Below are positions 1 to 3,294 of a DNA stretch of 64,000 bases, one piece after another. The position numbers and the translations under genes were made by a program. The notes beneath the pieces were generated by a model. That model had not been told where the DNA came from, searched no databases, and saw only the letters and a list, made by a program, of their open reading frames with translations. This DNA is from Minisyncoccota bacterium (GTDB lineage Bacteria; Patescibacteriota; Minisyncoccia; Phycocordibacterales; VMEP01): contig JBAZUR010000001.1 in the NCBI GenBank assembly GCA_041661305.1, positions 387,684-451,683 of the forward strand, given 5' to 3'. The number at the start of each line of letters is the position of its first letter. Position 1 is the first letter of the stretch.

Positions 1-3000
1 TCCAACTTTTCCGTTTGATGTAACGACAAGCGCGTTTGAACCCACATTTAAGAGTGAGGAGAAAAGATTTGTTGATGATGCTGTTGTCGAAAAAAGATTT
101 GTTGTTGTTGCCGATGTCCCTGTTGCATTATTGAAAGTGAAATCCTGAAGTGTTGATGATCCCGTAACCCAAAGATTAGATAATGATGTAAGCCCGCCCA
201 AGAAAGAAACTGTGCCTGTTGCTGTGAGATTGCCTCCGATGTATGCATCACCTGCTACAGAGAGTTTGGCGAATGGTGAGGTGGTGCCGATACCGACGTT
301 GCCACCATTCAAATACGAATCTCCTGTTGTTCTTAATTGTATTGTTCTGGTCCCCGCAGCATTATATGCATAGAGTTGCGCATCAACAGCACTTGTGAAT
401 AATTCTGTTACACCACCAGCTGGAGAAAAAGCTAAACCAGAAGCACTACCGCTACCTAACCTTGTTCCAATAGAAAACCTATTAACACCTGATGTAAGAG
501 GGTCACCAATTACTAAACTTGGCGAGCTTAAAACAGGATTAGTAATATCAAGTCTTCCAAAAGGACTCGTTGTTCCAATTCCAACATTACCTGTTGAGCT
601 TTGTACTACAAATTGAGAACCACCAATTGTAAGTCCACCATTGAATGTTGAGGTACTTGTGTTTGTAACAGCGAGATTTGTAAGTGTTGTTGTGCCAAAC
701 GAAGCGGTACCTGTCGCGGTGATATTTGTCGCAGTAATATTTTGTGCAAAAAGATTTGTTGTCGTTGCATTTGTTGTCGTGCTATTTATCGCCGTGTACT
801 CAGTGATGGAAGCAAACGAGGAAGAAAGATTATCTATAACTCCTGATGTTGCGTGGAAAAGTGTGGTGAATAAATTGGTGGATGTTGCATTCGTCGTCGT
901 GCTGTTGAGGATAGAAAGATTTGAAATTGTAGAAGTTGAAGCGTTTGAGATAACTCCCCCAAAAAGATTTGTTAGACCTGATATATATGTATCACCTATA
1001 ACTTCAAGTTTTGCTGAAGTAGTAGTAGACACCGCGCCAATCAAAACTTGGTTGGTTGTTGTTGAAAGTCTTGTTCCAGAACCATTGAAATATGACCAAT
1101 CAATACTTCCAAGACCAGTACCCACAGCAACACCACCAAAGTACAAAACTCCAGCATTGTTGTAGAGACGATTATCAAAAACAGTCATTGGTGCGCCATT
1201 TTCTGAAAGATAGATAGGCCCTTCCACTGAAAAGACGTCTGTTGGGGAGCTTGTACCAATGCCGACATTACCATTTGAGCTAACAACCAAAGAATTGTTA
1301 CCGACATTCAAGAGTGAGGCGAAAAGATTTGTTGATGAAGCGGTAGCTGCGAAGAAGTTCGTTGTTGTTGCAGATGTCCCAGTTGCGTTGTTAAAAGTAA
1401 AATCCTGAAGTGTTGATGAACCTGTGACTAATAGATTTGTTGCCGATGTTGTCGCAAATGAAGACGAACCTGTGACAACTAAACTTGTTGCCGATGTTGT
1501 TGCGAACGAAGCAGTGCCAGTCGCAGTGATATTACCTGCGGTAATATTTTGTGCGAAAAGATTTGTTGATGTTGCGTTTGTTGTCGTGCCATTTACTGCC
1601 GTGTAATCAGTGAACGCAGCGACCGAAGAAGAAAATGTATCAATGACTCCTGTTGCAGCGTGAAGGATGGAGGCAAAGAAGTTCGTCGTTGTTGCAGATG
1701 TGCCTGTTGCGTTTGCAAATGTCACATCCTGAAATGATGAAAGGTTGGTAACGGTGAGGCTTGCGATAGTTGTTGTTGCAAGATTTGAAATTCCAGTAGC
1801 AGTCAAACTCTGTGTATTAAAACTATTTGCTGAAAGTGCCACGAATGAACCAGTGCCATTTACTGTAAGAGTCTCGAAAGTTCCAGTTGTTCCAGAGAAA
1901 GTTGAATTGGTTATGATTGCATTGTTGATTCGGACATTCGACAAATTGTCGATTCTTTGTGTAAGAGCAATGGCGGAGAAATTGTTGTTGTAATTTGTGG
2001 TGGCATTTGAAGACACTCGGTAGATCTCGCTCTTTAGTAGGTTGGCTAGTTCAGTGAGCCTCTTGTCCAAAGCTTCTTCTGTTGTTCCAAGGGTGATGTT
2101 GGTTGTTTGTGAGCCAGACGCCGATACTAATATTCCAGAAGAACTAATCTTCTTTATAACAGTGTCCGTGATTATGGCGGTGAGATCATCTGAAGATAAA
2201 CCGTTCAAATACTGCACACTCAAATTTGCCACTGTTGTAGAAGAAGTAACAACAAGTGGAGGAATACCTTGCTTTGCAAATGATTTTAATTGACCTTCAG
2301 TTTCAATAGAACCGAGAATCGAAATCTCACCATTATCATTAAGTAGAAGCAACTCGTTCGCATGTGTCCCCGGACGAAAACCGAGAACTGTTTGCGAATC
2401 TTTCATCCAATCTTTTACCGCATGCAAAGAAGTATCGAACATTCCAAAAACAACAGGGATAGGCAAGATGATAAATAGAACGAGCGCCGTTAGTGTGAGT
2501 GCTCCGAATTTTATTTTCGAAGCAGCTGTCATTGGTCGAGAAACAACAGATATTGGAGAAACTATCGAACCTTCAAGTTGTGAACTGATTTCTCTTTTAA
2601 CTGCAGCTGAAATATCAAATGGTTTTGGAGCTTCAGCAACTTTCTCTTTTATTTCCGGAACGATTGTAACCTTTGGTGCGAGTGGTGGAATTAGTGGTGC
2701 GCTTTTTTCAGTTGATTTTATTTTTTTATTATTCTCTTCAGCTATTTTCTCTTCTTGAGTTTTTTCAATTTTTGAATTTAGTGTACTAAGAGATTCTCCA
2801 ATCTTTTTAAACTCATTCATAAAGAAAGATTTCTCTTCTCCTCTCTCTACTATATGAACATTTTTTTCAGTCGATGTTTCTGGTTTTACAACTGATGCAA
2901 AATTAGGATGTGGAAATTCTGCAAAACTTGGACGCACCTTTTCCTTTACGAAAACTTCCTCTGCAAAAACAGGGCTTGAGATTTTTGGCGTAGCAACCGA

Positions 3001-3294
3001 AGCTGATGTGACCTCCGAAGCCCTTTCAAAAATTGGCTTAATCTTTCCGCTATCGAGTGAGCCATTTTGAATCTGGGCTCGAACCATCTGTCGGTGCATG
3101 TACTCGTCAACAATGGCTTTTGTCGTGTACCAGGTATTGTCGATCTTTTTAGCTGAAAGCTTCTTTTTGCGAGCAAGGAGACTTAGGTACTCCGAACTGT
3201 AGGGGGTCAACTTTGCCGCTAGGCTTAGAGGAATCCACTCATTGTTTGAGTGGTCATTTTTGAAAAAATTTTTGGCTCCTAAGTTAAAGTTCAT
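1..3294 (-). CDS. Giant surface protein, 5' portion (>=1098 aa in window; the 3' end runs past the window start). N-terminal HTH_17/excisionase-like segment, single TM helix (about aa 260-283), then Thr/Asn/Ser-rich extracellular repeats with tail-fibre-like '[10 protein letters not shown]..KLxV' motifs.
   Basis: Manual reverse-strand translation is open from ATG 3294 ([45 protein letters not shown]...) through ...[33 protein letters not shown]... (TM) ...[11 protein letters not shown]..., [16 protein letters not shown]..., [18 protein letters not shown]... to position 1 with no stop. An in-frame TGA lies upstream of 3294. DNA-level repeats occur within the gene (61-160 vs 1321-1420; 760-830 vs 1561-1620). 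The ORF-track + strand ORFs at 395-2758 are antisense shadows. Confidence 0.75.
   Translation of the reverse strand, partial: [1098 protein letters not shown]

Follow-up and report, generated by a model that had tools for sequence, protein, structure and literature searches.

At the left edge of the analyzed DNA, a 64-kb stretch referred to here as the window, lies the 5′ part of a giant fiber gene (positions 1 to 3294, minus strand). Reverse-strand translation from the ATG at 3294 down to base 1 yielded 1098 codons with zero stops, as expected from the original prediction of an uninterrupted reverse reading frame of at least 1098 amino acids leaving the window at its start. Because the ORF runs off the window, it is missing from the program-made ORF list, which contains here only short ORFs in other frames, lying either on the plus strand (395–616, 641–1165, 1424–1606, 1745–1993, 2042–2293, and 2468–2758) or, in two cases, on the minus strand out of the frame of the giant gene. 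The original explanation that the gene had been overlooked for lack of an in-window stop was thus correct. On a 97.6%-identical metagenome contig (L002), the same frame is open for at least 3138 codons and still open at that point, making this size a lower bound. The window therefore holds no more than the first third of this gene, which is at least 9.4 kb long. Comparison of the two available strain-level versions, the window on the one hand and the mutually identical L001 and L002 on the other, revealed 0 indels, and the codons that differ do so synonymously in 94 cases and non-synonymously in 9; neither a stop nor a frameshift, either of which had been named as grounds for abandoning the gene, was found within 1–3294. 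Judged by these sequences, the giant gene is real and its frame is under purifying selection.

The N terminus of the encoded protein (amino acids ~19–75; 3070–3240, minus strand) carries a predicted MerR/excisionase-type winged helix-turn-helix (HTH) domain, as indicated by its β-α-α-β-β-α order and the family motif. The Pfam HTH_17 model scored 14.1 bits (E = 0.06) on the window copy, below the gathering cutoff of 27, and 20.8 to 22.3 bits on whole orthologs against the same cutoff, while 18 of 19 isolated family N termini matched it at E ≤ 10, the best at 1.7e-7. The predicted structure of the N terminus was confident; its winged-helix fold can be superposed on the DNA-binding domains of MerR and Xis, and its structural matches included MerR, Xis, BldC, GlnR, and RacA. 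Thus, the HTH_17/excisionase-like character claimed for this region is upheld by the fold model and the family N termini, with the window copy itself remaining sub-threshold. As no signal peptide precedes the HTH, the domain is cytoplasmic. The further suggestion of an anti-sigma function found no support: Pfam and NCBIfam scans of the giant protein returned no anti-sigma family, and no sigma-factor gene lies next to the giant gene at the loci examined, where the conserved neighbors encode signal peptidase I and a small MerR-like protein. The HTH is followed by a low-complexity cytoplasmic linker rich in K, E, S, and P (amino acids 76–262; 2509–3069, minus strand), recognized by its composition and by family comparison. 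Its length differs within the family, with the post-membrane module beginning at amino acids ~170 to 525.

Next to the linker, hydropathy and a gapless 46-sequence alignment delimit a single hydrophobic segment (amino acids 263–286; 2437–2508, minus strand). The Kyte-Doolittle profile has only one peak (amino acids 257–293, maximum 2.62), in agreement with the one transmembrane (TM) helix expected at about amino acids 260–283. The segment is flanked by K/R on its N-terminal and by acidic residues on its C-terminal side, and therefore an N-in/C-out orientation is predicted.

Beyond the membrane, the protein enters a family-defining module (amino acids 285–375; 2170–2442, minus strand), recognized from alignments, an exhaustive profile search, and repeat proteins, with a consensus that closes in.S...P.VV.S.T.V.NL. 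Its second half consists of one copy of a phage tail-fiber repeat (..APF.V.S.T.V.NLNADLLDG), a type that also forms the repeat unit of phage-tail-fiber-like proteins; structure prediction of the module as a monomer gave an unusable model (pLDDT 42.9). The remainder of the window ORF is a Thr/Ser/Asn-rich repeat region (amino acids 376–1098; 1–2169, minus strand) with diverged internal DNA repeats. The motif GNVGIGT(T/S)SPxxxL occurs in it three times, at amino acids 675 (1231–1272), 902 (550–591), and 998 (262–303), all on the minus strand, and 22 times in the extended protein. In S74 fibers, β-helix capping loops follow the consensus V-G-G/N-π-x-x-P-x-x-x-L (PMC10769870), which GNVGIGTxSPxxKL of the giant protein satisfies; the copy at amino acid 998 is similar to the Bdellovibrio mosaic adhesive trimer (MAT) fibers 8OND and 8OML. 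A phmmer search against the PDB matched only 8OND (Bd2133) and 8OML and 8ON4 (Bd1334), with E values of 1e-4 to 2e-4, the similarity being weak, local, and confined to the capping-loop modules.

Two other expectations about this region did not hold. The density of N-x-S/T sequons had been described as very high, but the 28 observed compare with 23.4 ± 3.7 in composition-preserving shuffles, so that composition alone suffices. The intragenic DNA repeats exist as claimed (2–189 versus 1262–1449, 76% identity; 89–156 versus 1349–1416, 82%; 664–889 versus 1471–1696, 75%); the length variation predicted from them, however, is not borne out, given an identity of 75 to 82%, a longest exact repeat of 20 nt, and the lack of indels between the two strain-level versions.

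An exhaustive profile search with the module retrieved 2582 representatives at E ≤ 1e-3; among the best 150 of these, roughly 95 showed full-length module matches near the N terminus, in proteins of up to 7,920 amino acids. Among 44 module-bearing proteins, the N-terminal motif is present in 40 and the TM segment in 43, and 53 of 54 genome loci proved to be family members, labeled nearly always as Patescibacteria. The complete orthologs are 1,648 to 7,920 amino acids long and all belong to Patescibacteria. Six of them (P0016, P0005, P0171, P0186, P0184, and P0170) contain Peptidase_S74 (27 to 65 bits; cutoff 22) with the Ser/Lys motif (S-D-x-x-x-K; CSSDERLK...GFIAQEV) near the C terminus, 1,400 to 7,500 residues beyond the TM segment. 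A further ~200 to 380 conserved amino acids come after it, where the orthologs have a GITxYDxxTGEPYC module and then a tail rich in Thr and Ser. Gly_rich_2 occurs in the variable distal parts of some members. Because the 3′ end of the window gene was not recovered, its own ending is read off orthologs only ~30 to 38% identical to it, which suggest that the giant protein likewise ends in an S74 chaperone with the same module and tail behind it. The phage-tail-fiber/S74-type ectodomain of the original prediction thus agrees both with the capping loops and with these orthologs.

The giant gene forms a conserved cassette with a signal peptidase I gene and a divergent MerR-like gene. The former (lepB; 3635–4174, minus strand; 179 amino acids; Peptidase_S26, 125.8 bits; TIGR02227, 124 bits) lies upstream of the giant gene and has intact catalytic boxes (SGDSMAPT, KRIAGIPGD, and GDNRAVSIDSR). 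It adjoins the giant gene in all 34 testable loci of subgroup 1, also when rplU/rmuC stands in place of gatB on the upstream side of the cassette, but in only 1 of 16 loci of subgroup 2. The small MerR/excisionase-type protein (4222–4473, plus strand; 83 amino acids; Pfam MerR 39.9, MerR_1 36.3, and HTH_17 35.0 bits), divergent from lepB, is the most widely conserved neighbor of the family (23/34 testable loci of subgroup 1 and 12/16 of subgroup 2). A holin-family gene is located 4 kb from the giant gene.

A perfect palindrome, CCGATAC-N3-GTATCGG (3302–3318), ends 7 nt before the start codon of the giant gene. It is unique in the 64-kb window even when 2 mismatches are allowed (0.08 expected), and 34 of the 37 subgroup-1 loci have it at the corresponding place; across 763 kb, 41 of 44 matches fall at the 5′ end of a giant gene. 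The arms CCGATA/TATCGG are invariant, and subgroup 2 has related half-sites. The palindrome thus appears specific to the giant-gene family, for which it may serve as an operator or as a leader hairpin. Farther upstream on the minus strand are a possible −10 hexamer, TAAAAT (3335–3340; 40 nt from the ATG), proposed from its pattern and matched by TATAAT at a comparable place in orthologous loci, and a DnaA-box-like motif, TTATCCCCA (3373–3381; 78 nt from the ATG), whose conservation was judged by eye in eight loci and which orthologous loci replace by TTGTCCCCAGAAAA or TTATCCACAGAAA.

Together, these data make it probable that the gene encodes a giant, N-terminally membrane-inserted surface fiber of the phage-tail-fiber, or Bdellovibrio-MAT, kind in a Parcubacteria/Paceibacteria-type CPR bacterium. 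The polypeptide would run from the cytoplasmic winged HTH through the linker and the one hydrophobic segment, N-in/C-out, into an ectodomain composed of the family-wide module with its single tail-fiber repeat and then of Thr/Ser/Asn-rich repeats with β-helix capping loops. By comparison with the complete orthologs, the S74 chaperone would trimerize the fiber after export and then cut itself off. By analogy with MAT and phage tail fibers, the fiber would project from the cell and recognize the surface of a host, the organism on which these episymbionts depend. The cassette of divergent MerR-like regulator, signal peptidase I, and giant gene appears to organize expression and export, and the operator-like palindrome is located at the start codon.

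The closest known counterpart is the S74 subgroup of MAT proteins of Bdellovibrio bacteriovorus (Bd3182, Bd2133, and Bd1334; PMC10769870); among solved structures, MATs alone gave a sequence match to the giant protein. Both MATs and the CPR family are large chromosomal fibers with an invariant domain, not necessarily homologous between the two, right after the export signal (a putative one in the CPR proteins), capping loops, variable distal parts, and a C-terminal S74 chaperone/protease, and Bdellovibrio, which also lives on other bacteria, uses its MATs as prey-recognition fibers. The CPR proteins differ in having ~170 to 520 cytoplasmic residues, a winged HTH and a disordered linker, before the hydrophobic segment. 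In a strict MAT, a Sec signal peptide is followed by an invariant β-rich N-domain of ~130 amino acids, whereas here ~260 cytoplasmic residues precede segment and module. Moreover, the CPR proteins are up to about eight times longer (7,920 versus ~1,000 amino acids) and apparently present in one copy per locus within a fixed cassette, while MATs form a multigene family of 21, and the CPR organism is presumed to be monoderm. Phage tail fibers and tailspikes that end in an intramolecular chaperone (K1F endosialidase, T5 pb1; PF13884) share the S74 Ser/Lys motif of the orthologs, the β-helical repeat logic, and the NLNADLLDG-type repeat. In contrast to these, the giant protein is cellular, with a membrane-inserted N terminus, and its orthologs continue beyond S74.

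The boundary between membrane and module allows for a different fate of the N terminus. A hydrophobic core of ~15 residues leads into a signal-peptidase-I-like c-region with Val282 at −3 and Gly284 at −1, which places the putative cut after Gly284 (VFG↓MFD), between nt 2443 and 2442. Small residues in this (−3, −1) geometry typify signal peptidase I sites, and across the 46 aligned sequences, gapless at this junction, −1 is G, S, or A in 46/46 and −3 is V, I, A, or S in 45/46, with Pro or Gly-Gly at about −5 to −7. The segment may therefore act as a signal anchor or, alternatively, as a leader that is cleaved off, and since the site is conserved, HTH and fiber may end up as separate polypeptides. 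It is possible, although we do not favor it, that the segment is an internal, unusually long signal peptide cut after Gly284: the fiber would then start at the conserved module and be held at the surface by it, while a stub of ~284 amino acids, comprising HTH, linker, and TM segment, would stay in the membrane. The active-looking signal peptidase gene immediately upstream in subgroup 1 fits this possibility, with the giant protein as a putative substrate, and has precedents in the tapA-sipW-tasA operon of B. subtilis and in SipA of Gram-positive pilus islands, where a signal peptidase I gene likewise lies immediately beside a surface-fiber gene. MAT fibers, too, begin with their invariant domain directly after the signal peptide (PMC10769870). 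Against cleavage, the hydrophobic span of ~22 to 24 residues is enough for a stable TM helix, and in one member signal peptidase I would be blocked by a Pro at +1. Furthermore, subgroup 2 keeps the boundary motif almost always without an adjacent lepB, so that the two do not co-vary. Finally, unlike in the known fiber operons, lepB is separated from the giant gene by 210 to 570 nt, with terminator-like hairpins in the window.

The role of the HTH can also be read in more than one way. The role that we favor, as a guess, is DNA binding by the HTH in its membrane-tethered state, with the palindrome in front of the giant gene as a candidate target. It seems unlikely, in comparison, that the domain instead mediates protein interactions or the export targeting of giant substrates, docking for example to a chaperone or to Sec in a manner analogous to the extended leaders of very large secreted adhesins. 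Such a role would suit the presence of the same ..W.TT module in stand-alone proteins of ~83 amino acids and at the C terminus of other proteins, the protein-binding MerR-fold domains (CbpM and DafA) among the structural matches, and a recognition helix that is not strongly basic. However, the structural neighbors are mostly DNA-bound complexes, a basic patch (RKKKLSAKK) lies at the helix-wing junction, and Pfam scans at E ≤ 10 found no known leader motif (KxYKxGKxW and ESPR families).

If the HTH does bind DNA, the protein could be a contact-sensing device in which a host-binding fiber is linked across the membrane to a DNA-binding domain of the MerR type, a reading that updates the signal-transducing role of the original prediction and that we regard as quite improbable. 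Upon host contact, processing at the signal-peptidase-like site, followed either by intramembrane proteolysis or by mechanical load on the fiber, would free or reposition the HTH. The HTH would then regulate transcription, perhaps through the family-specific CCGATA-N5-TATCGG operator beside its gene. In keeping with this, the cytoplasmic end of a single-pass protein bears a fold of the DNA-binding type, which is extremely conserved (69% mean column identity versus ~30% for the ectodomains), the palindrome with its invariant arms lies at the gene start, and a conserved protease-type site marks the membrane boundary. Transcriptional regulators of the ToxR/CadC type have the same topology, in that a single TM segment joins their cytoplasmic winged HTH at the N terminus to an extracytoplasmic domain; yet ToxR combines an OmpR-type HTH with a small sensor ectodomain, whereas here a predicted MerR/excisionase-type HTH is joined to a fiber of several thousand residues. 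The missing anti-sigma domain and adjacent sigma factor argue against signaling, as does a cassette without a linked site-2 protease. In addition, the palindrome could just as well, or with better reason, be bound by the product of the neighboring MerR-like gene, and its presence or absence does not discriminate between the two HTHs. In the myelin regulatory factor MYRF, a single polypeptide likewise combines an S74/ICA domain with a DNA-binding domain and one TM segment. Its DNA-binding domain has an Ndt80-like fold, as opposed to the MerR-like fold here, and its S74 lies in the cytoplasm between DNA-binding domain and TM segment, which is why self-cleavage frees the transcription factor. In the CPR orthologs, S74 lies near the extracellular C terminus, far beyond the TM segment; its cleavage therefore cannot free the HTH, and the domain order is not that of a MYRF-like self-cleaving membrane transcription factor. 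MYRF carries the capping-loop motif as well (PMC10769870).

Very improbable is a prophage tail-fiber gene or recent phage acquisition: despite the phage building blocks (NLNADLLDG repeat, capping loops, and S74 chaperone) and the nearby holin-family gene, dozens of genomes have the gene at the same chromosomal place beside lepB, gatB, obg, and secA (or rplU), no phage structural genes were found nearby, and a cytoplasmic N-terminal domain with a TM segment is incompatible with a virion fiber.

Beyond the original prediction, the analysis thus adds a size of at least 3138 amino acids, a conserved cassette, an operator-like palindrome, and a possible signal peptidase site separating HTH from fiber. 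In the literature, we found no experiment on surface display, host binding, or DNA binding for any member of the family. As a MAT-like surface fiber, the giant protein may be the means by which ultrasmall CPR bacteria attach to their hosts. If the doubtful coupling to the HTH were true as well, it would be an equivalent, in bacteria, of mechanotransduction in the style of MYRF, Notch, or RsgI, and would connect host attachment directly with gene expression in the CPR group.

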